64,000 bases of DNA from Candidatus Latescibacterota bacterium (GCA_965197905.1 CBDAOB010000004.1:736001-800000); one strand, 5' to 3'. Positions 8,589 through 54,509 are shown, counted from the first letter of the stretch. The notes: generated by a model not told the origin, from the sequence alone. A program made the numbers and translations.

Positions 8589-9623
8589 ATGCGAATGATT
8601 GACCTCGATTTGAAGGATAGCAAGATCCTCGTCGTCGACGACGTACCGGCCAATCTGGACGTTTTGGTGGAGGCGCTGGACCGGGAAGGGTACAACGTTC
8701 TGGTTGCCTCCAATGGTACGACCGCCTTGGAGGTAGCGGCGTACGCCCGCCCTGACCTGATTCTTCTCGACGTCATGATGCCGGGCATCGATGGATTCGA
8801 AACCTGCCGGCGACTTCAGGCGGACCACAACCTGGAAGATACTCCCGTGATATTCCTGACCGCCAGAGACGACATCGAAGGGATCGTGGAGGGGTTCGAA
8901 GCCGGTGGCCTCGACTATATCACCAAGCCGTTCAAGAAAGAAGAGGTCTTGGTACGGGTGCGGACGCATCTCGAGCGCACCCTGCTGGCGCGCAACCTGG
9001 CCGAGCTCAACGCCCATCTGGAGCAGAAAGTGGCCGAGCGCACGCGGGAGGTGCAGCTGCGGCTCAAAGAGCTTGAAGGCAAGGATCGTATCGCCCAACA
9101 CCTGTTGACCTTCAATACCCTCGAAGAAACCCTGGCCGTGGTTCTGGAAGTCATAACCAACATTCTAAAGCTGGATAGTGCGGCCGTTTTCCTGCGCGAA
9201 AACGGAGAGCTGCAAGCTACAGCCGCCATCGGCGTGACCGATCCCGGTGCCATCATTGGCCGTTCCGAATTGACGAAATTGTCGTTTGAGCCCAACGCCG
9301 CAGCAGCCCAGTCCATCGAACAGAAATCGGCGACGATGGTGAAGGATGCCGATCTGCCAACCGCGCTCGTTCCCATTCTCCGCGATGAGGATGTGCTTGG
9401 ACTGATTCAGGTGGAGAACCACCAGAGTAAGCGAGACATCACCGATGCCGACTTGAAAACCCTCACCAGCTTTGCGTTGCAGTCAGCCGTCGCCATCACC
9501 GATGCCCAGGTGCGCCAGGATCCGGAAGCGTGGCGCGATCAGCTGGACGAGATTCTCGAGATCGAAGAGGAGCTAGAGGATTCGGAAGGTTTGGATGGGC
9601 TGAGCGCCGCAGAGGAAGATTAA
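8589..9623 (+). CDS. Response regulator: REC, coiled coil, GAF, acidic tail, no output domain
   Basis: ILVVDDVPANL..PDLILLDVMMPGIDG..FLTA..DYITKPF; GAF-like LVPIL..DVLGLIQVEN..DLKTLTSFALQSAVAI. Confidence 0.85.
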   Translation: MRMIDLDLKDSKILVVDDVPANLDVLVEALDREGYNVLVASNGTTALEVAAYARPDLILLDVMMPGIDGFETCRRLQADHNLEDTPVIFLTARDDIEGIVEGFEAGGLDYITKPFKKEEVLVRVRTHLERTLLARNLAELNAHLEQKVAERTREVQLRLKELEGKDRIAQHLLTFNTLEETLAVVLEVITNILKLDSAAVFLRENGELQATAAIGVTDPGAIIGRSELTKLSFEPNAAAAQSIEQKSATMVKDADLPTALVPILRDEDVLGLIQVENHQSKRDITDADLKTLTSFALQSAVAITDAQVRQDPEAWRDQLDEILEIEEELEDSEGLDGLSAAEED

Positions 9624-9643
9624 GGGACGCGGGACGTCGGCAA

Positions 9644-16449: not shown

Positions 16450-17691
16450 TCAGGGCACGGGTTTCGATCTGTTTTTGTAGATCTCTTCGTGACCGGGGGG
16501 AATGACCCCGCCGATCTTCAGCGCCTGTTTTCCGTTCTCGCCGGCGAAGGGACGCGCCAGAAATTTGGGTTCCTCTTCGACGAAAACTACGACGGGTCCC
16601 GTCTTTGGTGTGTCCGAACAGATGATATCGCCGGTCTTCAACGTTCGGGCTTCGCCCAGGGAGATCTGCGTCCGCCCCAGCTCGGCCGTAACCGGCATGA
16701 AGGTCTTGTTCAGACGCTGGTTGTTCTGTTGAATCAGGTCATCTTTATTCGTCTGTGAAATCCGGACATAACTTTGTTGTCCCAACCGCGGCAGGATCGA
16801 TTCGAGGGTAAAGAAGGGATAGCACAGGCTGACCAGGCCCGAGGCGTTTGTAGAGTTGACCTCGAAAGCCAGCAGGATGACGATCTCACTGGCCGCCGTG
16901 ATCTGCATGAACTCCGGGTTGGTCTCCAACTCGATGTCGGTGACCTCTACCCGCAGAATCGGCTCCCAGGTCGCTTCCAGATCTTCGATGACCCGCTTGG
17001 TGATGCGATGAATCACACCAACCTCGATCGGGGTCAGGGTTCGCGGTTCCACGCCTTTGTGGGAGCCCTTACCGCCGAAAATCCTGTCGACGAAAGCGAA
17101 GGTTACCGGCATGGCAAAATCGATGATCGCCTGCCCATTGGTGGGACCCAATGTAAACTGGTAGGAACAGGACGGATTCGACAGTGACATGATGAATTCG
17201 GCATAGGTAGTCTGGTCCACGAACGCCGTTTCCACATCCACCACGGCACGCATGGCGCCGGAAAAGGTGGAGCTCAGCAGTCGGGCGAAGTTGTCGTGCA
17301 GGTTTTCCAGGGTGCGCAGCTGATCCTTGTTCACCCTCGCCGGGTGTTTAAAGTCGTAGCTGGTGACTATTCGTTTTTGAGGTCGTCCGCGGTTCTCCTT
17401 CTTCTGTTGCATCTCCATGTATTGAGCCAAAGCCTCTCCCATCGCCAGGCGCAGCTCCTCCCGCGCCTTTTTCGATATTCTCTTGCCCTTGAGCAGGGTG
17501 TCCAGCTCCTTCAGCGCTGCCGCCTCCAACGCCTCTCCCCGTTCATTGACCGCCAAACCTGCCAGTCTCTGCAGAAAACCCGAAATTTGGCTCTCGTCCA
17601 GCTTTTGCTTCTTGAGACGGCCGTAGAAACCGTCCGACTCCTTGGATAAGAGCAGCGCATCGATTTCATCCTGAGAGAGTATGTCAGCCAT
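16450..17691 (-). CDS. fliM: Flagellar motor switch protein FliM (copy 1)
   Basis: MADILSQDEIDALL CheY-binding peptide, YDFKHPARVNKDQLRTLENLHDNFAR, GGKG, LTPIE, ETNPEF, C-terminal SpoA domain. Confidence 0.92.
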   Translation of the reverse strand: MADILSQDEIDALLLSKESDGFYGRLKKQKLDESQISGFLQRLAGLAVNERGEALEAAALKELDTLLKGKRISKKAREELRLAMGEALAQYMEMQQKKENRGRPQKRIVTSYDFKHPARVNKDQLRTLENLHDNFARLLSSTFSGAMRAVVDVETAFVDQTTYAEFIMSLSNPSCSYQFTLGPTNGQAIIDFAMPVTFAFVDRIFGGKGSHKGVEPRTLTPIEVGVIHRITKRVIEDLEATWEPILRVEVTDIELETNPEFMQITAASEIVILLAFEVNSTNASGLVSLCYPFFTLESILPRLGQQSYVRISQTNKDDLIQQNNQRLNKTFMPVTAELGRTQISLGEARTLKTGDIICSDTPKTGPVVVFVEEEPKFLARPFAGENGKQALKIGGVIPPGHEEIYKNRSKPVP

Positions 17692-17709
17692 GTCAGTCTC
17701 CTACAAATC

Positions 17710-19023
17710 TTAGACGTAATCGTCTCCGGTGTCGCCGCGAACTATCCTAACCTTCCCCTGCTCTTCGAGCTGCCTCACTGTTTGCACGATCCGCAGCTGC
17801 ACCTCCTCCACATCACGGCGCAGCATCCGTTCCAGCCCCTCCATGCCTTCTCGAACCGAGGTGCAAGCCCGCTCCGACATGTTGCTGAAAAATCGTTCTC
17901 GCAGTTCCTCGCCGGCCTGTTTTAGTGCGATGGTAAGATCTTTCTCATCTGTTTCGCGTAACAGAGTCTGGATTTCGGTATCCGTCATCTTGCCGATCTC
18001 GGCGAAAGTAAACATCTGATTGCGCACTGATTCGGCCACCTCCGGATCCTGCGCATCCATCTGGTTGAGAACGGTCCGCTCCACGCTTGAGCCCGTCAAA
18101 TTCAGCACGTCGGCCAGCACCTTGGGTCCGCCTACGTCCTGATCCCGACCGAGCAAGTCTCGAAGAGAAGCTTCCAAAGCTTCTTCGAGGTTCGCGATCA
18201 CCTTTTGAGGGACGTTCTCGGTAGTCGCCATTCGATATGACACGTCTGCCTGTAAACGTTCGGGCAATTGTGCCAGTACCCCTGCTGACCTGCGTGGTTC
18301 AAGCTGCGAGAGAATGAGCGCGATCGTCTGCGGGTGCTCGTTAGATAAGAAGGGAGCGATCTGATCCGCCTCCACTCTGTTGAGCATGCTGAACCCGGAT
18401 TCGGTAGAATCTATATTCCTGTCAACAAAGTGATTCGCCCGGTGTGGTCCCACCACCTTGGTCAGCAGCCCGCGGGCATACGCCGGGCCGCCGATCTCCA
18501 CGTAGTCACCAGCCACGATGCGCCGGTGCGCTGTCTCCAACGCGTGCATAGCGAGCTGATGCCCAACCTCGGGCATCTCCGCAATAGCTCGCGCGACGAG
18601 CTGAGTTTCCTCGCCCAGATGTCGGCAGACCTGGGCACCAATTTCCTCGCCCAGACCGATCAATATGGCCGCTACCAACTGTTGAGCAGTCAGATCAGAG
18701 AGCGGTCCCTCGTCCCGGCTTGCCTCTTCTCTTCGGATGATAGTTCGGACCACGGCTGCTGTTTCTTTAGCGTGGTGAAAGAGGTAGGCATGGGTGCTGT
18801 CAGCGGCGATTCCAGACGGTAGGAGAGGCGCCGAGGAGGTGTCGGGAGGTTTTGCCACAGCCTCCACGGTCTGGGGGCGCGGTTTTGGCACGTGCAGGGG
18901 TGGCATCGCGTCGACGGCAGCCTCGTCTGGGCATGTCCAGCTTGCAACCGTTTGTTTCTCTTTAAACTCGGTCGAGCCGCCCACGATGCGGGCCCCTGTA
19001 GTTTTTTGAGGCGCGGCGCTCAT
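17710..19023 (-). CDS. fliG: FliG-like motor switch protein (copy 1) with N-terminal extension
   Basis: [56 protein letters not shown]. Confidence 0.88.
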   Translation of the reverse strand: MSAAPQKTTGARIVGGSTEFKEKQTVASWTCPDEAAVDAMPPLHVPKPRPQTVEAVAKPPDTSSAPLLPSGIAADSTHAYLFHHAKETAAVVRTIIRREEASRDEGPLSDLTAQQLVAAILIGLGEEIGAQVCRHLGEETQLVARAIAEMPEVGHQLAMHALETAHRRIVAGDYVEIGGPAYARGLLTKVVGPHRANHFVDRNIDSTESGFSMLNRVEADQIAPFLSNEHPQTIALILSQLEPRRSAGVLAQLPERLQADVSYRMATTENVPQKVIANLEEALEASLRDLLGRDQDVGGPKVLADVLNLTGSSVERTVLNQMDAQDPEVAESVRNQMFTFAEIGKMTDTEIQTLLRETDEKDLTIALKQAGEELRERFFSNMSERACTSVREGMEGLERMLRRDVEEVQLRIVQTVRQLEEQGKVRIVRGDTGDDYV

Positions 19024-19295
19024 GAGGTCACCTCGTGATCGACGGGAAAATCGTGAAGGCGGGTGATGCGTACGGCCATGAGGTCTGTAACAACCACGAT
19101 CTCCCCTTCGGCAAAGGGCCTCCGGTTGACCAGCACACCGAAGGCCTCGCCGGCCAGTTTATCGAGCTCGATGACGTCGAACGCCTGCAGCCTCCGTACC
19201 TGACCCAAGGTCATTTCCTTGCGACCCAATTCCACCATCACTTCGGCCACCACATTGGCCAGATCCGCGCGTGGGGTGCTTTCGAGAGTTGTCAT
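19020..19295 (-). CDS. fliN: FliN/SpoA-domain protein (type b, copy 1)
   Basis: VELGRKEMTLGQV..VIELDKLAGE..LVN..FAEGEIVVV..VRIT. Confidence 0.8.
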   Translation of the reverse strand: MTTLESTPRADLANVVAEVMVELGRKEMTLGQVRRLQAFDVIELDKLAGEAFGVLVNRRPFAEGEIVVVTDLMAVRITRLHDFPVDHEVTS

Positions 19296-19307
19296 TCGGA
19301 CCTCCTC

Positions 19308-19604
19308 TCAGACCTGTCCCAGAACCTCGGTGAGTCGCACGCCGAAGTTCTCATTGACCGTGATGACCTCACCCCGAGCGAAGTGTTTGCCGTTGACGAA
19401 TACGTCGATGGGATCGCCCACCTCCTTGTCCAATTCGATCAGCGACTGTTCGCCCATGTCGGAGATGTCCTCCATGGTTTTCGTGGTACCACCGAGTACC
19501 ATCTGGACCATGACGGGCATATCCTCGAGCAGGTCGATATTGTCACGTGGTGCCGCCGGCTTCGGCGGAACTGCCTTTTTCTTTGGGGTCTTGCTCGTTG
19601 CCAT
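19308..19604 (-). CDS. fliN: FliN/SpoA-domain protein (type a, copy 1)
   Basis: NIDLLEDMPV..LIELDKEVGDPIDVFVNGKHFARGEVITVNENFGVRLTE. Confidence 0.88.
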   Translation of the reverse strand: MATSKTPKKKAVPPKPAAPRDNIDLLEDMPVMVQMVLGGTTKTMEDISDMGEQSLIELDKEVGDPIDVFVNGKHFARGEVITVNENFGVRLTEVLGQV

Positions 19605-19652
19605 TTCGCTTTGCTCCTTCCCTCGAAGTGGGTAGATGAGCCGCTCGCTTCA

Positions 19653-19683
19653 ACAGTGTACGGAACTCCAGAGCATAATCCTA
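19653..19683 (-). promoter_or_regulatory. Putative promoter/operator of the fliN-fliN-fliG-fliM operon (TAGGAT-N17-TACACT), shared with 30551..30581
   Basis: 13-bp exact match ACAGTGTACGGAA plus GCAnAnTCCTA at identical spacing in both upstream regions. Confidence 0.5.
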
Positions 19684-19695
19684 TAAGGGTTTTTA

Positions 19696-21201
19696 CTAGG
19701 TAGATGGAGCTTCCCTAAGGTCAAGACCGAACCTGTAGGCGTAGAGCACCGCTGGCCCATCCGCCTCAAAATGCAGTCGCACTTCCTGACCCACGAAACG
19801 TGCCAGATCGCTGCGCTCCTGCCCCCAGGTGATTTCGAAGTCGGTTTGGTCGTCGCGCTCCAGGCCGTTGCAGTTGTCCAGCTCGAACCCTTCCGGAACC
19901 TCGGTATCGCATACCACCCGAACTCGGATGCGGCCGTTGTTACTCGGCTTCTTTGTGCCGAAAACGCTGGCATTCAGAAATAACCTTGCGCCGTCGACCC
20001 GCACGGGTTCAGTCATCAACTCGCCGGCGCCACCCGTGCACATCCCCACGAATCCATCCTTGCGCAACGTCGCCAGACCGATGGCCGCCTGGAACTTTTG
20101 ATCGCTGCCGTGACGACGCATGCCCGAATACCAGATGTGCAGCACGTTGTCCTTGAGGATGGGCGGATTCAGCGATGACGAGACCCAGCCATGGTCCCAG
20201 GCGCCCGGGGTCCCGATGGGCAGGAACTGTTCGTGTTTCCCGACTCGATGCCACTTCGTGAGGTCGCGCGCCGTAGCCAGCTCAGTTGCACCTTGGCCCG
20301 TCGAGGTGTAGAAGAGCGCCAGAAATCCCAGGTATTGATTGCCATAGGCAAACGGCGTCATCAGCTCGAACTGGTCGCGTGTCTCGTCGAAGTCATCCGG
20401 TTTGAGAACCGTCTCCATCGGAGTCCAGTTGACGAAGTCCTCGCTGGTACTCAAGGCGACCACCTTGCGGTACTGCTTCCACTGCAGAATGAAATGATCG
20501 GCAATCGTCCCAGCGCGCCGCGACACGGCTATGAACCGACGTGTGCCCGGATCGAAAACGACCGCGCCGCCATCGCCGGCTCTCGCAATAGACGGTTGGT
20601 CGTCCAGGGTCCAGCGGATTCCATCGTTGGAGTGGGCAGTGTACATGCCATGGCGCTCGAGCACGGACTCAAAATACCTTCGCCGGTCTTCCGGACTCGC
20701 TGATTTTCCGGCACGAGGCAGCTCTGCCTGGCGCTCCTGGTAGTACCCCATCTTGTAACGGCGCGTTGCGTCTTCTTCGCGGTCATCCTTGATGATGCCC
20801 CACGGGTGCAGCGAGCCGTGCTCCGGACGAGTTTCCGGCGTGGGGTAAACGATGTTGTTCGCCGTAGATCCCTGAAACGGGAACACGCCCAGCTCGGGCT
20901 TGTCCCACTTCACGCCGTCGGTTGAGCTGGCGTAACAGATATACTTCTGGGCTTCGTTGCCGGCGCCGGCGGGACCGTGGGTGAAGTACCACATTTTGAG
21001 GAGGTCTTCGTCGCCGTCGTAGAGGACCGATCCCCACATCTGCACCGCGCTGCCTTCCCAGGGACGGTCGGCACGCAGCACCGGCTCGGTCTGGGCGCGA
21101 GCAGGTTGTTGCACCTTGCGCACGAAACCGGGATGATCCTGAACCTCGGCGTCATCTACGAATAGGTGCAGACCAGGATCGTGGAGATCACTGACGATCA
21201 T
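19696..21201 (-). CDS. Beta-propeller glycoside-hydrolase-like protein (GH32/43/130-like fold)
   Basis: HLFVDD, PVLRADRPWEG, CYASSTDGVKWDKPELG, repeated SxDxxxW motifs, IGLATLRKDGF. Confidence 0.6.
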   Translation of the reverse strand: MIVSDLHDPGLHLFVDDAEVQDHPGFVRKVQQPARAQTEPVLRADRPWEGSAVQMWGSVLYDGDEDLLKMWYFTHGPAGAGNEAQKYICYASSTDGVKWDKPELGVFPFQGSTANNIVYPTPETRPEHGSLHPWGIIKDDREEDATRRYKMGYYQERQAELPRAGKSASPEDRRRYFESVLERHGMYTAHSNDGIRWTLDDQPSIARAGDGGAVVFDPGTRRFIAVSRRAGTIADHFILQWKQYRKVVALSTSEDFVNWTPMETVLKPDDFDETRDQFELMTPFAYGNQYLGFLALFYTSTGQGATELATARDLTKWHRVGKHEQFLPIGTPGAWDHGWVSSSLNPPILKDNVLHIWYSGMRRHGSDQKFQAAIGLATLRKDGFVGMCTGGAGELMTEPVRVDGARLFLNASVFGTKKPSNNGRIRVRVVCDTEVPEGFELDNCNGLERDDQTDFEITWGQERSDLARFVGQEVRLHFEADGPAVLYAYRFGLDLREAPST

Positions 21202-21214
21202 CGTCGCCGTACCA

Positions 21215-22219
21215 TTAGACGATCTTGTGCAGTTCCGCCCAGTACCTGATGAACGCGATATCCCGGTCGAAAGTGCCGTCGAAGACCCAGTTGCGGCCCC
21301 AGTCCTCCACCTGCGCCTCCGTGCCCGAACGCCAGATCAGGCGGGCCAGCACGAAGAGTTTCACCGCCTGCAGTTCGGGCTCACTCGGTTGGCGAATGCT
21401 CGAATACCCCTCCAGATAGAAGTTCCAACGGCGGTCCGATTTAGCCCGTCCGGAACGCGTCGCACCGTCGACCTGCGCATTCTTGGCGAGAAATACAGCC
21501 AGGTCGTAGGCGCGCCAGCCGTAGCCGTAACAGTCGAAGTCGAAGACCGTCATGCGGCCCTGTTCGTCCACGTGTACGTTGCCGCCGTAGTGATCTCCGT
21601 GGCAGCAGCCGTACTCCGGCCGGGTCAATGGAAGAAATCCGTCTAACCTCGATTTCAGTTCACTGCCGATCTTCATGAGGCAATCGAGATCTTTGCGTCG
21701 GTGTTCCAAACACTGGGTAACGCTGCGCAACGAGTCGTCCACCAGGTAGCCAAGATCGAGATGGAAACGCCTGCGATCCTCATCACATTTGTCCAGGCAC
21801 CTGTGCATTCGCGCCAGCAGCTCACCGTAAGCACGCGAATTTCTCGCGTTGAGCTCCATTGGCTGTCCCGGCGCGTAGGTGAACAGCGCGGCATAACGCA
21901 CGCCTTCGGGTGCGGCGATCCGCGTCAGAAACGAACGGTCTTTCCTTTTTATTGGATAGGAAACTGGAAGCTTGTGGCGGCGAAGATAGGTCAGCATCTC
22001 GAGCTCCGCCTGGATCTCCGCCTTGGTGCGCCAACCGTGTCGGTAGACCCTCAGTATGAACTGTGAGGAGCCCGCGGTAACCGCGTAGGTGTCATTGAGT
22101 CCCGGATTGTGGAAATAACAACGCGCGGGTGCGGGGAGCGAAAATTTGCTCAACACGCGCTCGGCCAGCGCCTGGCCCGCGAGAATTGAATTGTTCAAAG
22201 GGAAATGGTGCTGGTTCAT
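21215..22219 (-). CDS. APH/choline-kinase-like phosphotransferase (type II homoserine kinase-like)
   Basis: NDTY..FILRVY, LARMH, CHGDHYGGN, VFDFDCYGYGWRAYDLA. Confidence 0.88.
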   Translation of the reverse strand: MNQHHFPLNNSILAGQALAERVLSKFSLPAPARCYFHNPGLNDTYAVTAGSSQFILRVYRHGWRTKAEIQAELEMLTYLRRHKLPVSYPIKRKDRSFLTRIAAPEGVRYAALFTYAPGQPMELNARNSRAYGELLARMHRCLDKCDEDRRRFHLDLGYLVDDSLRSVTQCLEHRRKDLDCLMKIGSELKSRLDGFLPLTRPEYGCCHGDHYGGNVHVDEQGRMTVFDFDCYGYGWRAYDLAVFLAKNAQVDGATRSGRAKSDRRWNFYLEGYSSIRQPSEPELQAVKLFVLARLIWRSGTEAQVEDWGRNWVFDGTFDRDIAFIRYWAELHKIV

Positions 22220-22273
22220 ACTACCGCGCCTTCATCCTCCCGCTTCCAATCTGAGTTGGTCGGTCTGTTTCGG

Positions 22274-23122
22274 TTATGCTAAGCGCCGAAACACCTCGAT
22301 GCTCGCGGCGCCGTAGGTTTCTTCGAGCACCACCCCTCCCCTCTCTCGGCACACCGTCTTCAAAGGTTCCGCCGCGTTGCCGGGACAGAAACCGTGCCCA
22401 CACACCTCGAATGCAGCGACGTCGTTGAGACCGTCTCCCACCATAGCGGCGTCGGAAGCAGGGACGCTCAGCATCTCCAGGAGGATTTGGGCGCCGGTTC
22501 CCTTGTCGACTGGTGAGGTGACATCCACATGAAATTCGTTGTAGTAGAACCGCAGACGCCCCTGTTGGATGGAGGTGTGCATCCTGAGGACCTGTTTCAG
22601 ATCCTCGACAAGAGACGATCCGGTTGCCGACGGAGGGACATGAAGGGTGAGCAAGGTTTCTTTTGGAATCTGGTGAATCTCACTCCCGATTTTTTCGGCG
22701 AGCAGCTCTTCTCCGCCGGAGTTGTACCAGTGGATAAGTTCCTGCACCTCGCTCAGATCTTCGAAAGGTGCGGCGAGCTCGGGTCGCTGCGACTCCTCGG
22801 CGACGGCGACCAGGTCGATGGTCGCATCCTGTATCAGGTCGTATGCGACCGCCCCGGTTTCTGACAGCACGTAACGCAGCTTCGAGGTCGCGAGCTCTTC
22901 GGCGATGAAGAGGGTGTCCAGCAAGCGCCTGCCGGTGGCCAGGATGACCTTTTCGACGCTCGAATCGTCAATGGCCGCGCTGACCCGCGCCAACATCTCT
23001 TTCTGGTCCGACGTAAGTCGGCGGTGTTCTTCGCCGGAGACGAATTGGGTTCCATCCTCGGGATTCAGGCATCCGTCGACATCGTGGAACAGAACTCGGA
23101 TAGGGCTCGTTTCAGGCGACAT
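22274..23122 (-). CDS. HAD-superfamily hydrolase (subfamily IIB)
   Basis: DVDGCL, LATGR, VDKGTG, VGDGLND motifs. Confidence 0.88.
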   Translation of the reverse strand: MSPETSPIRVLFHDVDGCLNPEDGTQFVSGEEHRRLTSDQKEMLARVSAAIDDSSVEKVILATGRRLLDTLFIAEELATSKLRYVLSETGAVAYDLIQDATIDLVAVAEESQRPELAAPFEDLSEVQELIHWYNSGGEELLAEKIGSEIHQIPKETLLTLHVPPSATGSSLVEDLKQVLRMHTSIQQGRLRFYYNEFHVDVTSPVDKGTGAQILLEMLSVPASDAAMVGDGLNDVAAFEVCGHGFCPGNAAEPLKTVCRERGGVVLEETYGAASIEVFRRLA

Positions 23123-23438
23123 GGTTTAGATACTCATTCGACCCGACCCTGCCGTCAAACGGCCGGAGGAGGGCTGAACAGACTCTTTCAGCCCTTCGAG
23201 TAGATTGGAAGCGGCAGGAAGGCTGGTTGGGTTTGCGTTTGAGCAGGCAAGCCGTCTGCTGAAAACTGCGCAGGCGCTGAATCTTGAGCGCCCAGAATCG
23301 ATCGATTTCTCATCCCACCGTTGTTGTCTACGGGGAAAAAAGCGCCAGCTCAGAGAGAATTGAGTCAGGTACGCGTCTTGCTGTAACTCTTCGAGCCACC
23401 AATCAAGGTGCCACCATCAATTCGTAAGAGGTATCGCC

Positions 23439-23801
23439 ATGAAAAACCTTTTGCAGATCGTCTGCGCAATTTTCGCCACCGCTCTGTTTGTTTTCGGATC
23501 CGGATGTTCGTCGTCCAGTACATCCTCTGAACCTGGCAGGGTAGGAAAGCTGGGAGTACAGCGCGACAGAGAAAGCAATGAAACCGAGGAAGAGATCGCC
23601 ATTGAAGCATTGCCGGCCGTAGTGGTCGATGCCGTAAACGGTGCCGTCGAAGGCGGCGTTATCGTTGAAGCCGAGAGGGAAACCGAAGACGGCCAGGTGA
23701 TTTACGAAGTGGAGGTTGACGTGGATGGCGTTGAGTGGGAAGTGGAAGTCGATGAGGATGGCAACGTGCTCGAGGTTGAAAGTGAGGACGATGAGGAGTG
23801 A
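23439..23801 (+). CDS. Putative lipoprotein with PepSY-like domain and acidic tail
   Basis: Signal peptide ending GSGC; LPAVVVDAV..EAERETEDGQVIYEVEV..EVEVDEDGNVL. Confidence 0.72.
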   Translation: MKNLLQIVCAIFATALFVFGSGCSSSSTSSEPGRVGKLGVQRDRESNETEEEIAIEALPAVVVDAVNGAVEGGVIVEAERETEDGQVIYEVEVDVDGVEWEVEVDEDGNVLEVESEDDEE

Positions 23802-23844
23802 GGACGATGAGGATGAGGATGAGGATGAGGATGATGACGATTGA
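23781..23844 (+). repeat. 16-bp tandem duplication AGTGAGGACGATGAGG x2 followed by a (GAGGAT)n run
   Basis: Read directly: copies at 23781-23796 and 23797-23812. Confidence 0.85.
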
Positions 23845-24011
23845 GCCGTAGAACCACAAGAGGCGACGATGGCGCGCGAACCTAAGAGCGCCGTCGCCGC
23901 CTCTTGCTGCATGTCCTTTGCTTAGCTCCGACCCGCGTCTTCCAAGCTCTCGCAGACAACAGTCCCTTATCGCCTGACGTCCAGGAGGGATCGCAGAAAT
24001 GCGGGTGAGTT

Positions 24012-27000
24012 CTACCGGCGTTGCGCATTCTTGATTTTTTCCAACAGCCTCTGAATCGACGCCATGTCGAAAGATTCCGCATGTTCCTGCATCGTCGTCG
24101 CCAGCTGGTTGGCACCCGGTCCTATCTCCCCTAGCTCGGCCAGCGCCTGCCGCAACTCGGTTATGTTGGCCACCGCGGCGGACTGGGTTAGACGAGTGAC
24201 TAATTCTGCAGGCAGCGAAACGCGACTTGGATCGATCGGCGCTTCCACCTTAAGCGCCGGTTCTGCCGCATCCCTATCGGAGTAAACGAATTCCACCCCC
24301 AGCAGATCTGCCAGACAACTGTAGATCTGTTCGACGCGTACCGGTTTGCCGACAAACTCGTCGAACCCCGACGACAGATAGTGCTGACGTTCGTGTTCCA
24401 ACGTCGAAGCGGAGACAGCCACCGCTTTGATCGCTGTCGTCGCTGGATCTGTCTTCAACCGTTCAACCGCCTCGTTGCCATCCATTTCCGGCATGCGAAT
24501 ATCCATGAAGACGATATCCACCGTCTCTTCACGCGCCGCCTCCACCGCTTCGCGACCGTTGACGGCTTGCACGACGTGAACGCCGATCGCTTCCAAGAAT
24601 TGCGCCAGGATGTCGCGATTCTCCTTGACGTCATCCGCCACAAGGGCGCGCACGGAGTGAGCCGGATCCAGTCCAACGATACGACTCCAGTCGCGCTCCA
24701 CTTTTGGTGGCAACACGCTCTGCGACCGGGATAATTTGATGCTGAACGAGAAGGTGGTTCCTTTTCCGACCGCGGACTCCAGCTCGAGGGTACCCCCCAT
24801 CAACTCCACCAATCGCTTCGACACCGCGAGTCCGAGCCCGGTGCCGCCGCGCTCGTACCCCGCGCTGCCCTGCTGAAAAGGCTGGAACAGCTCCTGTTGC
24901 TCATCGGCACCGATACCTTGCCCCGTGTCCGTCACCACGAACCGATAGTTGTCGGGACCCGCAGGGGTGACGTTCAAAGAAACGGAACCTTTCTGGGTAA
25001 ACTTCACCGCATTGCCCAGCATGTTTATGAGCACCTGCATGAGTTTGCTTTCGTCGCCTCGAACCGAGACGCGGCCCGGGCTCGGCAACTCGAGGCGCCA
25101 TTCGAGACCCGCTTCGCGACAGCGAAGATCAAACATTACCGCTAGGCTCTGGAGCAGCTGGTCCAGGTCGAAATCCGACTCCTGAATCACCATTCGGCCC
25201 GCTTCGATCTTCGAGATGTCCAGGACCTCATTGATCAGCTTGAGCAGATGATCGCCGCTGGTCTGGATCGTTCCCACCGCCTGCCTGTGTTTGTCGGTCA
25301 GATCCGGGCTGTTCTGCATGATCTGCGCGTAGCCGATGATCGCGTTCATTGGCGTGCGAATTTCGTGGCTGATATTAGCCAGGAATTGCGACTTGGCCTG
25401 GTTGGCCAACTCGGCCGCATCCTTGGCTTCGCGGAGTTCGGAAATCAATTGGTTCTGAGCTTCGGTGGCCTCCTGAAAATCGCTGTAGCGGGCGTAGGCC
25501 AAGTCTACGACTTCGGCGAAGTCTTGGACGCGCCCAATCTCGCCCCCGGTAAATGCGGTTCCCTGACCGCTCCATCCCCGTTGCAATACCAGCGCGCCAC
25601 GGCTGTAAGGCACGTTGACTCCCCAGATCCTGGCTTTGGTATTGAGGGTGTCATCGGGTTCTAGGGTCGCCCAGCTCGATTTTTCCTGCTCCGTCATCTC
25701 CCCATGCCAAGTCTGTGCGGAACGCCATTGTTCGATGTAGTTGTGACTGAATTCGGTTTTTGCTTCGTTTGAAAGAACCTGGAGTCCGGTCTCCTCGTCC
25801 TCGGGGCGAACAACCTGTATGGTACCAGTCGCTTCGTTCAGAACGCAGACGTAAAGCAGATCGAATCTAACCCCCATTTGACGCAATTCGTCTCCTACCT
25901 GGACGATCACCTTTTGAAGATCATCCGACCTCTTCATGGCGAGAATAGTACTGCGGACCCGCTCGAGGGCTTGCTCCGCGGAGAAGCTGCGCAACAGATC
26001 TGCCATGTCGGTGTCGTCTTTGTCGACGCTCTCGAGGATGTTACGCGTGACCGGCGTGCTGCTTATGTTGAGAATGTCGGCTACAACCTTCGGGCCACCC
26101 ACGTCCTGGTCGCCAACCAGGATATCCCTCAACGACTGTTCCAGGGCTTCTTCTATCTGGTTGATGGCGTTGGGGGTGACGCTATCCATGGTCGCCATTC
26201 GATAGGCGACATCTGCCTGCAGAGGCTCGGGAAATTGGGCCAGAAGGCCGGCAGCCTGGTCCGCACCTAGCTGCGAGGCAATTAGCGCTATGGTCTGCGG
26301 GTGCTCATTGGCCAGAAACGGCGCCAGTTGATCTGGTTCCACGTTCTTGAGCATGTAGAATCCAGCCGTCACCCTGCTGGAGACGCGGGCTAGGATCTCT
26401 TTGGCTCGGGGCGCTCCAACGGCACGGGTAACTGCGGCGCGGGCAAAGTCCATTCCTCCGGTGCTCAACCACGTTCCTGCAAGCAGATGCTGCCTGAACT
26501 CTTCCAGCACGTCGTCGCGAAGCGCTTTCGGAGTGCCCTGCAAACGGGCAATCGCCTGGGTGGTCTCCTCTATCTCGAAATCGGAGAGATGTTGCATTAT
26601 CATGCCGGACACCTCTTGGCCGACAGCGACCATCACGATGGCCGCTTTTTGAATCGCCTCTAGCCCGCTCTCTTCGGTGGATTCATCGTCAACAAGCATC
26701 GTGCTCACCAGGTTGGCCGCCTCAGCCGGACGGTTACGCATGAATTCGTAGACAGAGGTAGATTCGTCAACGTGAAACGGAGCTGAGTCCTCTGTGCGAG
26801 TCGTACCTGTTTCGAGCCGTCCCTGCTCCGTGACGGAGGGCGCGATCTCCTGCTCGGGTTGATCGTCTCGTACTGGAGAAGCTTCAGCCGCGCCTGGCGC
26901 CCTTTCCTCCTGAAGGAGGGAGAAGGCCTGTTCCCAATTCGTCGAGGACGGGTACGCTGGCACGGGTGCCATCGAACCTACCTCGCTGTGGGAGGGGGGT

Positions 27001-27083
27001 CTCCACTCCTCAACGGAAACCAGATGTAACTTGCTGCTCCTCAATCCTAGAATGCGACCCGCGGATTTCTCTGATGCAGACAT
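24012..27083 (-). CDS. FliG(N+M)-GAF-like-HisKA-HATPase-REC fusion hybrid histidine kinase
   Basis: [44 protein letters not shown]; then [71 protein letters not shown] before ATG 27083; one uninterrupted ORF. Confidence 0.9.
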
Positions 27084-27104
27084 CTGTTCCTCCTGCCTCG
27101 TCAC

Positions 27105-27461
27105 CTATGATTCCTCACGAAGCGATTCTGACCCAATGGAATCGAGTCGCAGATCGTATGCCTGTTCCTTGCGAACGTGGAAGCGGACCAGCCTGCAAGC
27201 AATGCGATCTCCAAGCACGACGATCTCGCTTTCGGCAAACGGATGGTTGTTGGCCAGAACGGCGAACGCTTCCCCGGCTTGTTTATCCAGAACGATGACG
27301 TCGTCTGGACCCAAATCGGAAACCTCGCTCAGCGGCATGCGTTTGCGACCCATTTCGACCACCAGCTGCATACGTACGCTTCCCAGATGTTGCAGGTTTT
27401 CCGCTTCACGCCGCAGCAGGTCTGTCGCCTCGTTCGGGTTGAGTGATAAGCTTTCGTTCAT
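27105..27461 (-). CDS. fliN: FliN/SpoA-domain protein (type b, copy 2)
   Basis: VEMGRKRMPLSEV..DVIVLDKQAGEAFAVLANNHPFAESEIVV. Confidence 0.78.
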   Translation of the reverse strand: MNESLSLNPNEATDLLRREAENLQHLGSVRMQLVVEMGRKRMPLSEVSDLGPDDVIVLDKQAGEAFAVLANNHPFAESEIVVLGDRIACRLVRFHVRKEQAYDLRLDSIGSESLREES

Positions 27462-27760
27462 TTTTCGTCCGCTCCGGAATCCAGAATCTCCGTCACTCGC
27501 ACACCGAAGCTCTCACCGACAGTCACCACGTCCCCTTTGGCGAACTGCTTGCCGTTCAGGCGAATGTCGATCGACTCTCCCACCAACCGGTCCAACTCGA
27601 TAATCGAATGTTCGTCCATTTCCAAAAGCCGGTCCAAGGTCTCCTCGGTGCGCCCCAATTCCATGCAGACCGTCACCATGACGTCCGGAATTTCGGCGGG
27701 TTTGTGCGTTGCATCGGTCTTGATTGCTTTCGTGGTCGCTTCCTGCTTCGTCCCGGGCAT
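27458..27760 (-). CDS. fliN: FliN/SpoA-domain protein (type a, copy 2)
   Basis: MELGRT..SIIELDRLVGESIDIRLNGKQFAKGDVVTVGESFGVRVTEI. Confidence 0.85.
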   Translation of the reverse strand: MPGTKQEATTKAIKTDATHKPAEIPDVMVTVCMELGRTEETLDRLLEMDEHSIIELDRLVGESIDIRLNGKQFAKGDVVTVGESFGVRVTEILDSGADEK

Positions 27761-27781
27761 GTCTGTTAGCTCCTGTCTGTT

Positions 27782-28786
27782 CTATTGGCCTTCCAATGGA
27801 TAGTCTGCCTTCAACTCTTGCGGTACCTTTCCCACGACCTGCAGCTTGATTTCTCCAGCCTCGTTCGCAAACGGACGGGCGTAGAGCTTGGGCTCGCCGC
27901 CGACAAACACGATGCAGGGGTCGGTCTTGTGACCTCGCATGCAGACCACGTCGCCCACCCGCATTCCGTCGACGTCTTCCAGGGCCAGGTCAGTGCGTCC
28001 CATCTCCACTACCAGCGGCATCTTCGCGGGGCCGAGCACCGAGCGGTTGCGCCGAGTCGTTGCCTCCCGATTCAAACGGGGGCCACGTACATAGTGTTGT
28101 TCGCCTAAAAGGGGTAGAATGGGCTCCAATGTGAAGAAAGGATAGCACATCTTGACCAATTGCTTGCTGATATGCGCTGAATTCACCTCAAATGCGATAA
28201 GGATTACGATTTCGCTGGGAGCGGTGATTTGGAGGAACTCAGGGTTGGTCTCCAGCTCGATGTCGGTGATCTTAACCTTTTGAATCGGCGCCCACGTTGC
28301 CTCGAGATCCCCGATGACGCGCTTGGCCGAACGGTGCGTGACGCCGACCTCGATCGGTGTCATCGTCCGGCCTTCGACTCCTTCCGATGAGCCCTTCCCC
28401 CCAAAAGTCCGGTCTACCAGCGCGAACACGAGCGGCAAAGGGAAATCGAGGATTGCCAGTCCGCGAGTGGGGCCCAGCGCGAACTGGTAGGAACAGGAAG
28501 GATTGCTCAAGGACATGATGAACTCTGCGTAGGTAGTCTGATCGACAAAAGCGGTATCGACGTCGACCACGCCCCGCATAGCCCCGGAGAGCGTGGAGCT
28601 GAGCAGTCGGGCCAGATTGTCGTGCAGGTTCTCAAGGGTCCGCAGCTGTGATCTGCTTACCCTTGCGGGGTGTTTGAAATCGTAGTCGGTCGCCGGCTTG
28701 CGCTCCCCTTCCTCCTTTATCGATGGTGCTTCGTGATTGTTGCTTTTCGCGTCCTCCCGCTGTGCCTTAGCGCTCTCTGACATCAT
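27782..28786 (-). CDS. fliM: FliM (copy 2) lacking the N-terminal CheY-binding peptide
   Basis: YDFKHPARVSRSQLRTLENLHDNLARLLSSTLSG..VDQTTYAEFIMSLSNPSC..ETNPEF; SpoA tail; GGAGGT RBS; no LSQxEIDALL. Confidence 0.88.
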   Translation of the reverse strand: MMSESAKAQREDAKSNNHEAPSIKEEGERKPATDYDFKHPARVSRSQLRTLENLHDNLARLLSSTLSGAMRGVVDVDTAFVDQTTYAEFIMSLSNPSCSYQFALGPTRGLAILDFPLPLVFALVDRTFGGKGSSEGVEGRTMTPIEVGVTHRSAKRVIGDLEATWAPIQKVKITDIELETNPEFLQITAPSEIVILIAFEVNSAHISKQLVKMCYPFFTLEPILPLLGEQHYVRGPRLNREATTRRNRSVLGPAKMPLVVEMGRTDLALEDVDGMRVGDVVCMRGHKTDPCIVFVGGEPKLYARPFANEAGEIKLQVVGKVPQELKADYPLEGQ

Positions 28787-28818
28787 CGATACCTCCGCTG
28801 CAAGGTGGAACATTCGTC

Positions 28819-30324
28819 TCATCCTGGATGCTGCGCGGCTCCGTCCGCATCTGGTGCCTCGCCCTGGACCGACCGCAACACGCGATAAAGCCGGTTCCGG
28901 CTCGTGCCCAGTAGCTCCGCCGCCTTCGTCAGGTTCCCATCACAATGAGCCATCGCTTTTTCTAGAACCTTCGATTCAGCCTGCAGTGCAGCCGCATCGA
29001 GATCCAGCGGCAGCTCGTCTTCAGTGCTGATCCTAGTTTCCGTGTCCGCCGCCCCACCTTTCGGCGCCACTGGAAAATTCAAATGATGCACCTCGATTCC
29101 CTTGCCGCGACTCTCTATCACTGCCCGTTCGACGACGTTCTTCAGCTCCCGCACGTTGCCGGGAAAATCGTAGGTCTCCAGGCGGCCGACCGCCTCCGCG
29201 CTCAGGTCCGGCAGGTCGCATCCCATCTCCTCGGCGAACAGCCGTGCAAAGTGATTCGCCAACAGGCCGATGTCATCCCGGCGCTTGCGAAGCGGCGGCG
29301 TCTCAACGGTGTAGCGTGCCAGACGGTAGTAGAGATCCCGCCGAAACGAGCCTTCCTGAATCCAATTCTGAAAATCGACGTTGGTCGCTGCGAGAATGCG
29401 CACATCGACGTGCCGGCTTGCGGTCGCGCCCACCGGCCACACCTCCCCATCTTCGAGCACGCGCAGCAGCTTGGTCTGCAGTGCCGGCGGCATGTCCCCA
29501 ATCTCGTCGAGGAAAAGGGTGCCGCCGTGTGCCATCTCGAAATAGCCGATGCGATCCTCGCTGGCGCCCGTAAATGCGCCGCGCCGATGGCCGAACAGTA
29601 CCGACTCTACCAGGTCTGTGGGGATTGCGCCGCAGTTCACCGGGACAAACGGTCCGTCCCGGCGCTCGCTGCCATAGTGGATCGCCCGCGCGATCAGCTC
29701 TTTGCCGGTGCCGCTTTCGCCGGTGATCAGCACCGAGGTGGTGGGGTTCTCCTGCATGAGCTCGACCTCGGCAAAAATCTTGCGCATTGTCGAGCTGTCC
29801 CCGATAAGACCTTCCAGCCCCCAGCGTTCCTCTTCGCGGCGGGAAATCATCGAGAGTTGCCCGCGCAGAGATTTGCGCATGCTGATCTCACTCTCGAGCT
29901 CCCGATTCTTCTCTTCAAGGGCCAGATGCAACCGCCGGAGTTGGATGTGCGCCGTTACCCGTGCCAGCACCTCTTCTTCCCGGAAAGGTTTGACCACGTA
30001 GTCCACGCCACCGGCCTGGAAGCCGGCGATGACGGCCTCTTTCTCGTCCCGGCCGGTGAGGAATATGACCGGGATAGCTGCGGTCTCCGGTTCAGCTTTC
30101 AGGCGTCTGCAAACCTCGAAGCCATCCATTTCGGGCATGACGACATCGAGCAGAACAAGGTCCGGATTGGCCTGCTTGGCGATCTTTAGAGCCGCAGCTC
30201 CCTCGGTCGCGACCATTACCTTGTGTCCTCTTGCTTCGAGGACCTGCAGAAGCAGTTTGAGATTTGTCGGGTTGTCATCGACGGTCAGGACTCGAAAAGT
30301 TGTGTTGACTTGATCTGCGGTCAT
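28819..30324 (-). CDS. Sigma54-dependent response regulator (REC-AAA+-Fis HTH; NtrC/AtoC family)
   Basis: VDD..DVVMP; GESGTGKELIARAIH, ESVLFGHRRGAFTGA, LFLDEIG, FRRDLYYRL, PGNVRELKN, AAELLGTSRNRLYR. Confidence 0.95.
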   Translation of the reverse strand: MTADQVNTTFRVLTVDDNPTNLKLLLQVLEARGHKVMVATEGAAALKIAKQANPDLVLLDVVMPEMDGFEVCRRLKAEPETAAIPVIFLTGRDEKEAVIAGFQAGGVDYVVKPFREEEVLARVTAHIQLRRLHLALEEKNRELESEISMRKSLRGQLSMISRREEERWGLEGLIGDSSTMRKIFAEVELMQENPTTSVLITGESGTGKELIARAIHYGSERRDGPFVPVNCGAIPTDLVESVLFGHRRGAFTGASEDRIGYFEMAHGGTLFLDEIGDMPPALQTKLLRVLEDGEVWPVGATASRHVDVRILAATNVDFQNWIQEGSFRRDLYYRLARYTVETPPLRKRRDDIGLLANHFARLFAEEMGCDLPDLSAEAVGRLETYDFPGNVRELKNVVERAVIESRGKGIEVHHLNFPVAPKGGAADTETRISTEDELPLDLDAAALQAESKVLEKAMAHCDGNLTKAAELLGTSRNRLYRVLRSVQGEAPDADGAAQHPG

Positions 30325-30350
30325 TGCCAGTTGGCTTCCACATGATGGAT

Positions 30351-30367
30351 GGCAAAGGACATGCCAA
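30351..30367 (-). promoter_or_regulatory. Sigma54 -24/-12 promoter of the bEBP-fliM-fliN-fliN-fliG::kinase operon
   Basis: Minus strand TTGGCATGTCCTTTGCC = GG-N10-GC, 27 nt upstream of the bEBP ATG. Confidence 0.8.
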
Positions 30368-54507: not shown

Positions 54508-54509
54508 GC

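Follow-up and report, generated by a model that had tools for sequence, protein, structure and literature searches.

Putative flagellum-linked regulatory C-ring paralogues, one of them fused to a sensor kinase, in a Latescibacterota genome

Two sets of flagellar switch (C-ring) genes lie among two-component signalling genes in a 64,000 bp stretch of a genome of Candidatus Latescibacterota, poorly known uncultured bacteria (the whole stretch is referred to here as the window), raising the question of whether they serve a flagellar motor or something else. The original prediction held that they were orphans, the only part of a flagellum to have been retained, and that they had been turned to a signalling function apart from motility. 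A Pfam scan of 48 window ORFs confirmed both clusters with matches above the Pfam cut-offs, all genes being on the minus strand, and the predicted lack of fliF, fliH/I, fliOPQR, flh, mot and che was borne out for the ORFs scanned in the 64 kb. A single C-terminal FlgD_ig domain was noted at 61997-62830. The clusters are therefore orphans within the window and not within the genome (G000), which has a full flagellar gene set including fliF, flhA, motAB, flgE, fliL-M-N-O-P-Q-R and 10 Flagellin_N matches; the idea of a switch retained without its flagellum was accordingly rejected. We counted nine copies of fliG and five of fliM in G000, together with a single full fliF and single copies of fliH, fliL and flhB. 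The motA, flhA and fliN genes are frameshifted, and the same frameshifts were found again in public contigs; the window genes are intact.

Cluster 1 has the order fliN-fliN-fliG-fliM. Its type A fliN (19308-19604; Pfam FliMN_C) is nearest by blastp to the FliN of the motor operon (64% over 74 aa), and its type B fliN (19020-19295; Pfam) to a stand-alone FliN at C5:1629k (65% over 80 aa). The cassette FliG between these genes and fliM (17710-19023, 437 aa) has FliG N, M and C domains (Pfam), a cassette-specific N-terminal motif, EHPQ, the GG linker and an MFTF hinge. Its predicted model matched 9n49_G (VIA Z 19.1, 307 residues, rmsd 15.5 Å owing to domain movement) and the FliG C-domain 1qc7 (Z 16.3, rmsd 1.0 Å), a search that compares fold and not cap docking. 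The FliM (16450-17691; Pfam) keeps both an N-terminal CheY-binding-type motif and GGxG, and its middle domain is 97% identical to that of the motor FliM, with a dN/dS of 0.017. FapA (DUF342) is a flagellum-associated family, and a FapA gene (9530-12085, plus strand; Pfam) stands in the kinase/receiver run that faces cluster 1. The family is co-expanded here, with eight copies in the genome including that of the window, and the window arrangement is also found in G002. We regard FapA as a neighbour associated with cluster 1 and only as a candidate member of the module; it has been reported to act as a stator clutch (10.64898/2026.10.14.759253).

Cluster 2 begins with a response regulator of REC-AAA(sigma54)-HTH architecture (28819-30324; Pfam), in which the phospho-Asp motif, Walker A/B and GAFTGA are all present. 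It is followed by a FliM (27782-28822; Pfam) that keeps GGxG and lacks the N-terminal CheY-binding-type motif, which is present in the G008 orthologue and missing from that of G015, and by fliN genes of type A (27458-27760) and type B (27105-27461), both assigned by Pfam and blastp. The last gene (24012-27104) encodes a 1030 aa fusion of FliG to a hybrid kinase (Pfam FliG_N/FliG_M-HisKA-HATPase-REC). The N-terminal part carries the N-terminal motif, a FliF-tail-like cap, FliG_N, FliG_M, the GG linker and ARM-C; from residue 375, the graft point at the MFxF position, there follow a GAF-like domain, a coiled coil, HisKA, HATPase, REC and a C-terminal helical domain. Pfam found no FliG_C, and nothing of FliG remains after MFxF. 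The kinase H, N, G1 and G2 boxes and the REC motifs are intact. The domain after the hinge is called GAF-like from the secondary structure of the model and weak ESM Atlas leads, all below 0.9, Pfam having no GAF match there. The junction fell at the MFxF position in 18/18 fusions, whose catalytic motifs are intact at 42-58% identity; the same position is where three truncated cassette FliGs stop. Because the architecture occurs in 16 protein clusters, the present one included, and the cluster 2 gene order is repeated in two other genera (G015 and G008), a frameshift artefact does not account for the fusion. A hybrid kinase normally requires an HPt relay, and none is encoded within cluster 2. 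Complex prediction for residues 1-60 of the fusion with the two FliNs scored 0.22 against a mark of 0.34, which counts neither for nor against a contact.

Upstream of FliG_N, the cassette FliGs carry a segment that resembles the C-terminal tail of FliF, on which FliG ordinarily docks, and that is confidently folded in the models. In the FliG-kinase fusion it spans residues 117-140 (26685-26756, minus strand) and scored 7.7 bits with a FliF-tail profile (the best of 1110 shuffles reached 5.6) and 10.9 bits with a cap profile built without that sequence; the homologues P0003, P0004 and P0006 reached 62-64 bits with the FliF-tail profile. In the cluster 1 FliG the cap is a helix pair at residues about 77-99 (18727-18795, minus strand; pLDDT about 90). 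Compared directly with the FliF tail it scored -0.9 bits; a strict profile gave 5.6 bits, and hhalign a P value of 7e-4 at a probability of 26%. The likeness became significant only through intermediate homologues, a bridging profile matching the FliF tail with an E value of 4e-5. Scores with the FliF-tail profile were higher than those of any shuffle for 21 of 37 proteins of cassette or fusion type and for 0 of 28 of stand-alone or outgroup type. A copied FliF tail at the cassette FliG N-terminus is thus indicated clearly in the kinase-fusion family and weakly in cluster 1. Cassettes with the same N-terminal motif are present in three families; a resemblance of this motif to the FliH N-terminus was considered and rejected (hhalign probability 0.1%).

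The charged torque-helix residues of E. coli FliG, R281, D288, D289 and R297, were checked in its sequence. The corresponding positions read R,E,E,R in all six stand-alone copies and R,E,G,L in cluster 1, whose longer series of torque positions is K,R,E,G,L against an expected K,R,D/E,D/E,R. The helix is missing altogether from cluster 2, and FliG_C is wholly missing there and in a third cassette on C1. More widely, the torque set was intact in 18/18 stand-alone and 9/9 outgroup FliGs, and of the 14 cassette FliGs whose C-domain could be read 13 had changes in it; the table leaves out G008_cas446, G015_solo370 and P0009 (pattern miss) and G002 cassette 1 (frameshift). In a separate sample, from which one incomplete sequence of 120 homologues was dropped and in which R-to-K was scored as altered, the set had changed in 52/69 N-extended and 6/50 unextended homologues, 17 of the 69 retaining it in full. 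The EHPQ loop of FliG and the GGxG loop of FliM are kept in both clusters. The six stand-alone genes, with every torque residue in place, are likely to encode the motor FliG of the genome. The original prediction had named as its refutation a motor gene set without fliG, fliM and fliN, of which cluster 1 would be the displaced switch. The motor operon does lack fliG, between fliF and fliH, but it has its own fliM and fliN, and with six torque-intact fliG genes also available cluster 1 is not needed in that role, which we consider unlikely for it.

Among 123 genomes of the class, 42 had both FliG_C and FlhA, 73 neither, eight FliG_C only and none FlhA only. In 15/15 class loci where both genes were seen fliF is directly followed by fliH, whereas outgroup loci from other classes of the phylum have fliF-fliG in 10/10, and the FliG copy number ranges from 1 to 19 matches per genome. 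By gene order and copy number, fliG appears to have left the fliF-fliH operon in this class of Latescibacterota and to have increased in copy number. Each cassette encodes FliM and one each of the two FliN types, and among the genomes checked cassette genes were found only in those that also have flagellar genes or their remnants. Of the FliG-only genomes, G075, G113 and G131 have other flagellar genes, G078 has fragments only, G010 has one weak flagellar match and three are fragmented assemblies. Cluster 2 is cleanly missing in G002, where about 13 kb of the motor operon is deleted (a comparison based on blastn, the tblastx output being too noisy). Broken FliG copies made up 8 of the 22 checked in four motor-deleted genomes and 0 of 16 in three FlhA-positive genomes, counts that long-read indels may inflate and that come from kin that are not independent. 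Three genomes with much of the motor operon deleted retain many paralogues, G113 having an intact cassette. The dN/dS values of the cassette genes (0.06-0.29; motor genes 0.03-0.04) indicate purifying selection. A FliG tree had been proposed as a means of recognising a distinct cassette clade, and no such clade emerged. In a quick tree that omits P0015 the sequences sort by family, with cassette, fusion and stand-alone members intermixed (8, 5 and 5 label changes); cassette FliGs sit on long branches there, and long branches meet. A replacement of chemotaxis by the cassettes was judged weak (CheW matches in 22/42 FlhA-positive class genomes and 11/15 outgroup genomes). The lone CheW-bearing cluster of G000 encodes CheR-TPR and a two-Hpt CheA, and is presumably Wsp-like rather than flagellar. 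A search for related loci in a database of genome contigs gave no confirmed relative.

A motif scan placed a sigma-54 (-24/-12)-type site at 30352-30366 (minus strand), 42 nt upstream of the cluster 2 activator, and one-mismatch sites precede its G015 and G008 orthologues. Strict sites numbered 202 genome-wide and occurred in three of 18 upstream regions tested, those of cluster 2, flgF and one flagellin, with a looser site at flgB. The genome has rpoN and 24 sigma-54 activator matches, so another activator may drive the flagellar promoters. Scans for sigma-70 promoters and terminators were at chance level.

We propose, with a probability of about 0.5, that the clusters are flagellum-linked, torque-dead regulatory C-ring paralogues and that cluster 2 is a C-ring-coupled sensor kinase. 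Judged from their sequences, cassette FliGs combine a FliF-tail-like cap with a torque subdomain that has changed or is gone, and they keep the EHPQ loop, to which FliM binds, and the predicted FliG_M/ARM-C ring-stacking parts. The cap would fill the FliF-binding groove in cis, and FliG-FliM-FliN-FliN' units would therefore assemble without docking to the MS ring. Such units would be poorly driven by stators, and may co-assemble with motor switch parts or compete for them; the extra copies are probably detached from the motor base and exert no force on it. In cluster 2 the torque-helix hinge would move the GAF-kinase instead, so that assembly or switch state could set the phosphorylation of the co-encoded sigma-54 activator, which may control the operon that encodes it and, probably, late flagellar genes, in the manner of FlgSR. 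Cluster 1 would be a kinase-less decoy or brake, its FliM N-terminus perhaps taking up CheY-like or FlhG-like ligands. The predicted signalling role thus finds support in the cap, the change or loss of torque residues, the hinge kinase and purifying selection; its supposed independence from motility does not.

Such independence is at the heart of a more tentative and, in our judgement, doubtful alternative, that self-capped FliG, FliM and the two FliNs polymerise off the membrane as a free cytoplasmic ring with kinase output and no motor contact, the hinge kinase acting as a stand-alone cooperative (ultrasensitive) transcription switch, an allosteric amplifier that could outlast the flagellum (as in G113 and G075). 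The cap would make FliF unnecessary, no cassette lacks a member of the FliG-FliM-FliN-FliN' set, switch genes have repeatedly been fused with signalling domains (the kinase, and REC-FliM in G152, G114 and G113), and G002, G075 and G113 still have paralogues after their motor deletions. However, 73 class genomes lack FlhA and FliG_C together, FliG copies decay once the motor is lost, the FliG-only genomes G075, G113 and G131 retain flagellar genes and G078 their fragments, and the tree has no separate cassette clade; a review, moreover, reports the view that it is the MS ring, and not solution, that favours FliG polymerisation (PMC7355467).

That the cassettes supply alternative rotor subunits, tuning torque, bias or ring size in a working C-ring with the kinase riding along, seems unlikely. 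The near-identity of the cluster 1 FliM middle domain to motor FliM and the retention of MFxF and most of FliG_C in cluster 1 speak for it, as do precedents in Borrelia FliG1/FliG2 (PMC7225975) and Campylobacter FliN/FliY (PMC6946799), but a cap in cis should block FliF docking, the torque helix has lost charge, and both cluster 2 and the third C1 cassette are devoid of FliG_C. This reading overlaps with the regulatory one that we favour if entry is via FliM-FliM contacts. We think it rather improbable that these are neutral duplicates and chance fusions in a mobile-element-rich genome, decaying along with motility: cassette dN/dS is higher than that of motor genes, cassette FliG branches are long, the G000 motor operon has lesions and copy number varies widely, yet dN/dS is far below 1, none of the nine cluster ORFs is broken, the fusions share a single junction and intact catalytic motifs despite their divergence, and the N-motif cassette recurs in three families. 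An assembly or binning artefact, mixing flagellar genes of several organisms or creating the fusion by a misjoin, is highly improbable; the assembly is of metagenome type, with indels and an estimated contamination of 4.5%, but single-contig relatives have the same multi-copy pattern, a further 15 protein clusters and two further genera contain the fusion, and fliF (in full), fliH, fliL and flhB are each present only once.

The cassettes share protein families, EHPQ, GGxG and the GG linker with the flagellar switch complex built on the FliF MS ring, and differ from it in having no fliF or fliH, in carrying the FliF tail in cis, and in the torque subdomain, whose torque residues are altered in cluster 1 and whose place a kinase takes in cluster 2. 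A close likeness to cluster 2 is FlgS/FlgR of Campylobacter jejuni, in which FlgS senses FliF/FliG assemblies (PMC3760246): both pair a cytoplasmic histidine kinase with a sigma-54 activator, the FliF/FliG link being conjectural here. FlgS is described there as a separate protein that binds the MS ring/rotor, whereas the cluster 2 kinase shares its chain with FliG and a FliF-tail mimic, is of hybrid type, with a GAF-like domain and a REC domain, and is encoded alongside a FliM and two FliNs of its own. Of the features of FlgSR, FleSR and FlrBC systems, cluster 2 has intact kinase boxes and a REC-AAA-HTH activator with GAFTGA, and the genome has rpoN and candidate late flagellar promoters (flgF, one flagellin and, more loosely, flgB) for this putative activator; the kinase is a hybrid FliG fusion rather than a stand-alone protein. 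More than one fliG, with division of labour, is known from Borrelia (PMC7225975), and duplicates occur in about 23 Pfam seed species (PMC4642947); these are cases of two fliG genes, as against up to nine here, and the accounts cited describe them without cap, FliM/FliN cassette or kinase fusion. The Campylobacter C-ring likewise has two FliN-type proteins, FliY and FliN, and roles beyond motility in FlhG localisation and division, in a single set for which the source cited describes no torque-dead duplicate (PMC6946799). A FliF tail and FliG_N are also joined in FliF-FliG fusions, engineered (e.g. PDB 8z4d) or natural and full-length (P0020-P0022), and in co-folded FliF-tail:FliG_N (PDB 5tdy, 5wuj); such fusions retain the membrane ring, by which FliG is anchored, and cassettes that keep only the tail should do the opposite.

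We found no published description of capped-FliG/kinase cassettes in the openly licensed PMC and bioRxiv literature. The C-ring has long served as a model for cooperative switching, and kinases of the FlgS type that sense motor assembly have no known structural mechanism. The fusion, which places a FliF anchor in cis and an enzyme exactly at the site of the FliG torque subdomain, points to the reuse of one motor part as a sensor. If it works as proposed, it would report switch assembly or conformation through a soluble enzyme, and would be a natural experiment on C-ring formation without an MS ring. The bacterial class as a whole also appears to have divided its FliGs between motor and non-motor forms. 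Annotation pipelines give the FliG-kinase fusion the bare label "response regulator".

Pfam searches of the 48 ORFs in the window bore out both switch-gene clusters as originally read. Cluster 1 (19604 to 16450) is arranged fliN-fliN-fliG-fliM, and cluster 2 (30324 to 24012) encodes a REC-sigma54 activator followed by FliM, FliN, FliN and a FliG::kinase fusion; no further core flagellar or che genes were found among these ORFs. The original prediction that only the cytoplasmic switch had been retained does not hold for the source genome (G000; 6.69 Mb, 5 contigs, 91% complete), in which the window spans C4:736001-800000: contig C5 (2473-2498 kb) carries flgB, flgC, fliE, fliF, fliH, fliI, fliJ, fliK, flgD, flgE, motA and motB, followed by fliL, fliM, fliN, fliO, fliP, fliQ, fliR, flhB, flhA, flhF, flhG and fliA, some named by reading of translations and others by family scan. 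A second region encodes rod, ring and hook-junction proteins and flagellins (10 Flagellin_N matches in the genome). The alternative of a displaced motor switch, with a complete flagellar set lacking its own fliG, fliM and fliN, applies in part: there is no fliG between fliF and fliH in the motor operon, but fliM and fliN are present there. G000 has nine fliG genes, six stand-alone, two in the window and one in a third cassette (fliN-fliN-fliG-fliM) on contig C1, together with five fliM genes; the six stand-alone fliG are of motor type. Each cassette has one FliN near the motor FliN and another near a stand-alone FliN.

A fliG-less motor operon with multiplied switch genes is the class-wide layout. 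In the class, fliH comes immediately after fliF in all 15 loci where both genes were seen (excluding two loci that end before fliH and the fragmentary G002), whereas fliF-fliG order was found in 10/10 loci of other classes, from 10 of the 14 FliG_C-bearing outgroup genomes. Across the phylum sample of 151 genomes, in which matches are not exact copy numbers, at least two FliG_C matches occur in 48 of 50 FliG_C-bearing class genomes versus 3/14 outside the class, and at least two FliM matches in 34/46 versus 0/14. Among 123 class genomes, 42 have both FliG_C and FlhA, 73 neither, eight FliG_C only and none FlhA only. Cassettes were seen in G002, G005, G008, G014, G015, G021, G022, G026, G113, G131, G145 and G152. 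The source names of database homologues are mostly Ca. Latescibacterota (P0007, P0016, P0046, P0066 and others), with a few Gemmatimonadetes/Gemmatimonadota, and point to Latescibacterota as the probable phylum of G000. The domain anatomy, conservation and co-occurrence of the cassettes are established.

The cassette FliGs differ from the stand-alone copies at both ends. The C-ring is hung on the MS ring by the FliF tail, which co-folds with FliG_N, as described in PMC7355467 and PMC6946799 (PDB 5tdy, 5wuj). A profile built from 26 FliF C-termini scored higher than any of 1110 shuffles (maximum 5.6 bits) just upstream of FliG_N in 21/37 cassette or fusion proteins and in 0/28 stand-alone or outgroup FliGs. 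Three fusion homologues scored 62-64 bits, a near-copy of the FliF tail, and the window fusion 7.7 bits (residues 119-140). Cluster-1 FliG scored -0.9 bits directly, its alignment falling at the same place as the other caps, and a profile of 65 homologous caps ranked the FliF tail third of 59,491 genome ORFs (E 4e-5). We consider this segment a probable rather than proven cap, because after removal of FliF-like caps from the profile the FliF tail scored 5.6 bits, with an hhalign probability of 26%. AlphaFold predicted a helix pair for both caps (pLDDT about 90 in cluster 1; 71-80, beside disordered flanks, in the fusion). Such a cap in cis would block FliF docking.

At the other end, the torque positions (K264, R281, D288, D289 and R297 in E. 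coli; residues checked in the E. coli FliG sequence) are intact in 18/18 stand-alone and 9/9 outgroup FliGs. They differ in 13 of the 14 cassette FliGs whose C-domain could be read, two by R to K only, in a table without three rows missed by the pattern and one frameshifted row. Cluster-1 FliG has K,R,E,G,L, and G002 carries the same deviant helix end. Among 120 database homologues, which as kin are not independent, these residues are altered in 52/69 N-extended versus 6/50 unextended proteins and intact in 17 N-extended ones. An extra N-terminal motif is present in the three cassette FliGs of G000 and in no other FliG of that genome; its comparison with FliH was negative.

FliG_N and FliG_M joined to HisKA without FliG_C form 16 clusters at 90% identity, one of them that of the window fusion, with identities of 42-58%; of the best 150 representatives at 50% identity, 6 have the architecture. 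The activator-fliM-fliN-fliN-fusion order is kept in G015 and in G008, where the kinase is split. The FliG part ends where the MFxF motif would begin in 18/18 fusions, and three truncated cassette FliGs end at the same point. MFxF is the hinge through which movement of FliG_M reorients the torque subdomain, and the ring is held together by FliG_M-ARM-C stacking, as set out in PMC7355467. Since the FliG sequence stops at this motif, the fusion retains the FliM-binding and stacking parts and output alone is swapped. Beyond the junction, a predicted GAF-like domain, which has no Pfam match, is related to domains of other kinases, and ShkA and GacS are among the hybrid kinases that the structure model matches. 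In cluster 2 the motifs of the kinase, the REC domain and the activator are all intact. Upstream of the cluster there is a sigma-54-type site (30352-30366); the strict form of the site occurred in 3/18 regions tested (cluster 2, flgF and one flagellin) and 202 times genome-wide.

We favour, at a probability of about one half, a flagellum-linked mechanism of capped switch units with cluster 2 as an FlgSR-like kinase module. Capped FliG-FliM-FliN-FliN' units would assemble without FliF, and stators would drive them poorly. Their link to the motor would be either the conserved FliM belt or competition for shared ligands; the FliM middle domain of cluster 1 is 97% identical to that of motor FliM (dS about 1). 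Kinase output to the sigma-54 activator of cluster 2 would be set by the state of assembly or of the switch, much as in FlgSR (PMC3760246). FlhF and FlhG, both encoded in G000, act on FliG and FliM-FliN in assembly according to PMC11236974. The FapA of Borrelia is reported to act as a stator clutch (10.64898/2026.10.14.759253) and that of H. pylori to belong to a cage that limits motility (10.64898/2026.10.23.761471); its co-expansion next to kinases is thus in keeping with a network that tunes the motor. A free cytoplasmic ring of switch proteins is unlikely though worth keeping in mind; against it, FliG polymerisation is thought to need an MS-ring template (PMC7355467). That the cassette proteins are variant rotor subunits seems doubtful.

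The flagellum-linked reading must also be set against neutral relics, which we judge improbable. dN/dS is 0.06-0.25 for cluster 1 versus G002 and 0.14-0.29 for cluster 2 versus G015 and G008 (unsaturated comparisons), compared with 0.03-0.04 for motor fliM and fliF. Of 22 FliG copies examined in G002 (where 6 of 8 were covered), G075, G078 and G113, 8 are broken, versus 0/16 in G000, G087 and G081, a count to which long-read errors may contribute. G002 has deleted fliI to flhB and lacks exactly the cluster-2 interval, and G075 and G113 have other large motor-operon deletions while still holding many switch paralogues. The core deletions differ (fliI-flhB in L067 of G002, fliJ-fliA in L096 of G075, flgC-fliA in L102 of G113); three genera with different deletions indicate repeated, recent flagellar loss in the class. 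An assembly or binning artefact is scarcely credible. Against contigs of four public runs, which may include the source sample, the fliO/fliP break in G000 proves to be an assembly error, set right in 3 of the runs. The motA 11-base duplication recurs in contig sets X2 and X3 and not in X1, the fliN frameshift in X1 and not in X2 or X3, and the flhA frameshift also recurs, X2 and X3 contigs spanning it without a gap; a high-copy 749-base flgE insertion, presumably group II intron-like, is missing from X1 and X3 contigs. Lesions in this operon (L008, C5:2470001-2490000) thus vary between public contigs of one population, possibly reflecting ongoing motility loss or phase variation. Loss of motility may be under way in the G000 population, with the window genes so far intact, which cuts both ways.

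Rotor-sensing kinases are already known, as are duplicate fliG (PMC4642947, PMC7225975) and two FliN types (PMC6946799); in Lysobacter, flagellar export genes are described as reused without FliG/FliM (PMC9927559). We found no description of FliG-kinase fusions, capped FliG cassettes or the fliG/fliM expansion of this class in the non-subscription literature. The FliG::kinase cassette is a known machine in a new form, with a new protein architecture.

Other variants were noted. FliG_C-only proteins (L021:10007-11221, L037:1070-2344, L050:11699-12991, L034:12550-13215) include a G026 protein that is fused to an ECF-type sigma factor, and two that lie directly upstream of cassettes. Further cassette fusions lie at L032:7422-10196, L034:9065-11209 and L084:5732-10689; FliM-FliN-FliG forms a single 924-aa chain in G021, an FGE-sulfatase-like domain is inserted in FliG of G026 and apparently G152 and G145, and REC-FliM fusions occur in G152, G114 and G113. 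Four scattered stand-alone fliG of G000 (C3 591k, 760k and 988k; C5 315k) lie among unrelated genes. Their proteins are 90-92% identical and their synonymous sites are saturated in the three pairs tested, which marks them as long-standing duplicates under strong selection. A 190-aa short FliF paralogue (L022:10402-10974; C3, about 312 kb) carries part of a ring-building motif, flanked by hydrophobic segments, and could anchor extra switch parts to the membrane; similar short matches occur in G002, G007, G014, G015 and G021. Two small ORFs end in a FliF-tail-like helix (C5:1560177-1560368, plus strand, 22 bits; C5:1711414-1711827, minus strand, 18 bits), one with hydrophobic N-terminal segments, and are possibly stand-alone FliG anchors or decoys. 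CheW occurs in one G000 cluster only (L023, C4:1949000-1956000), presumably Wsp-like, with an MCP, CheR-TPR, CheB, two CheW and a CheA with two Hpt domains; a chemotaxis cluster of the classic flagellar kind was not seen in G000, yet motor FliM retains a CheY-binding-type motif. FapA, the DUF342 neighbour (window 9530-12085), has seven further loci in G000 (eight in all), and relatives have as many as 12 matches. It often adjoins receivers and hybrid kinases, and it turned up solely in genomes with FliG (FliG_C in 40/40 class genomes with FapA). Two window histidine kinase genes (7247-8560 and 51535-55661) are apparently frameshift-split, one with HisKA from residue 1 and the other with HisKA and HATPase in separate frames.
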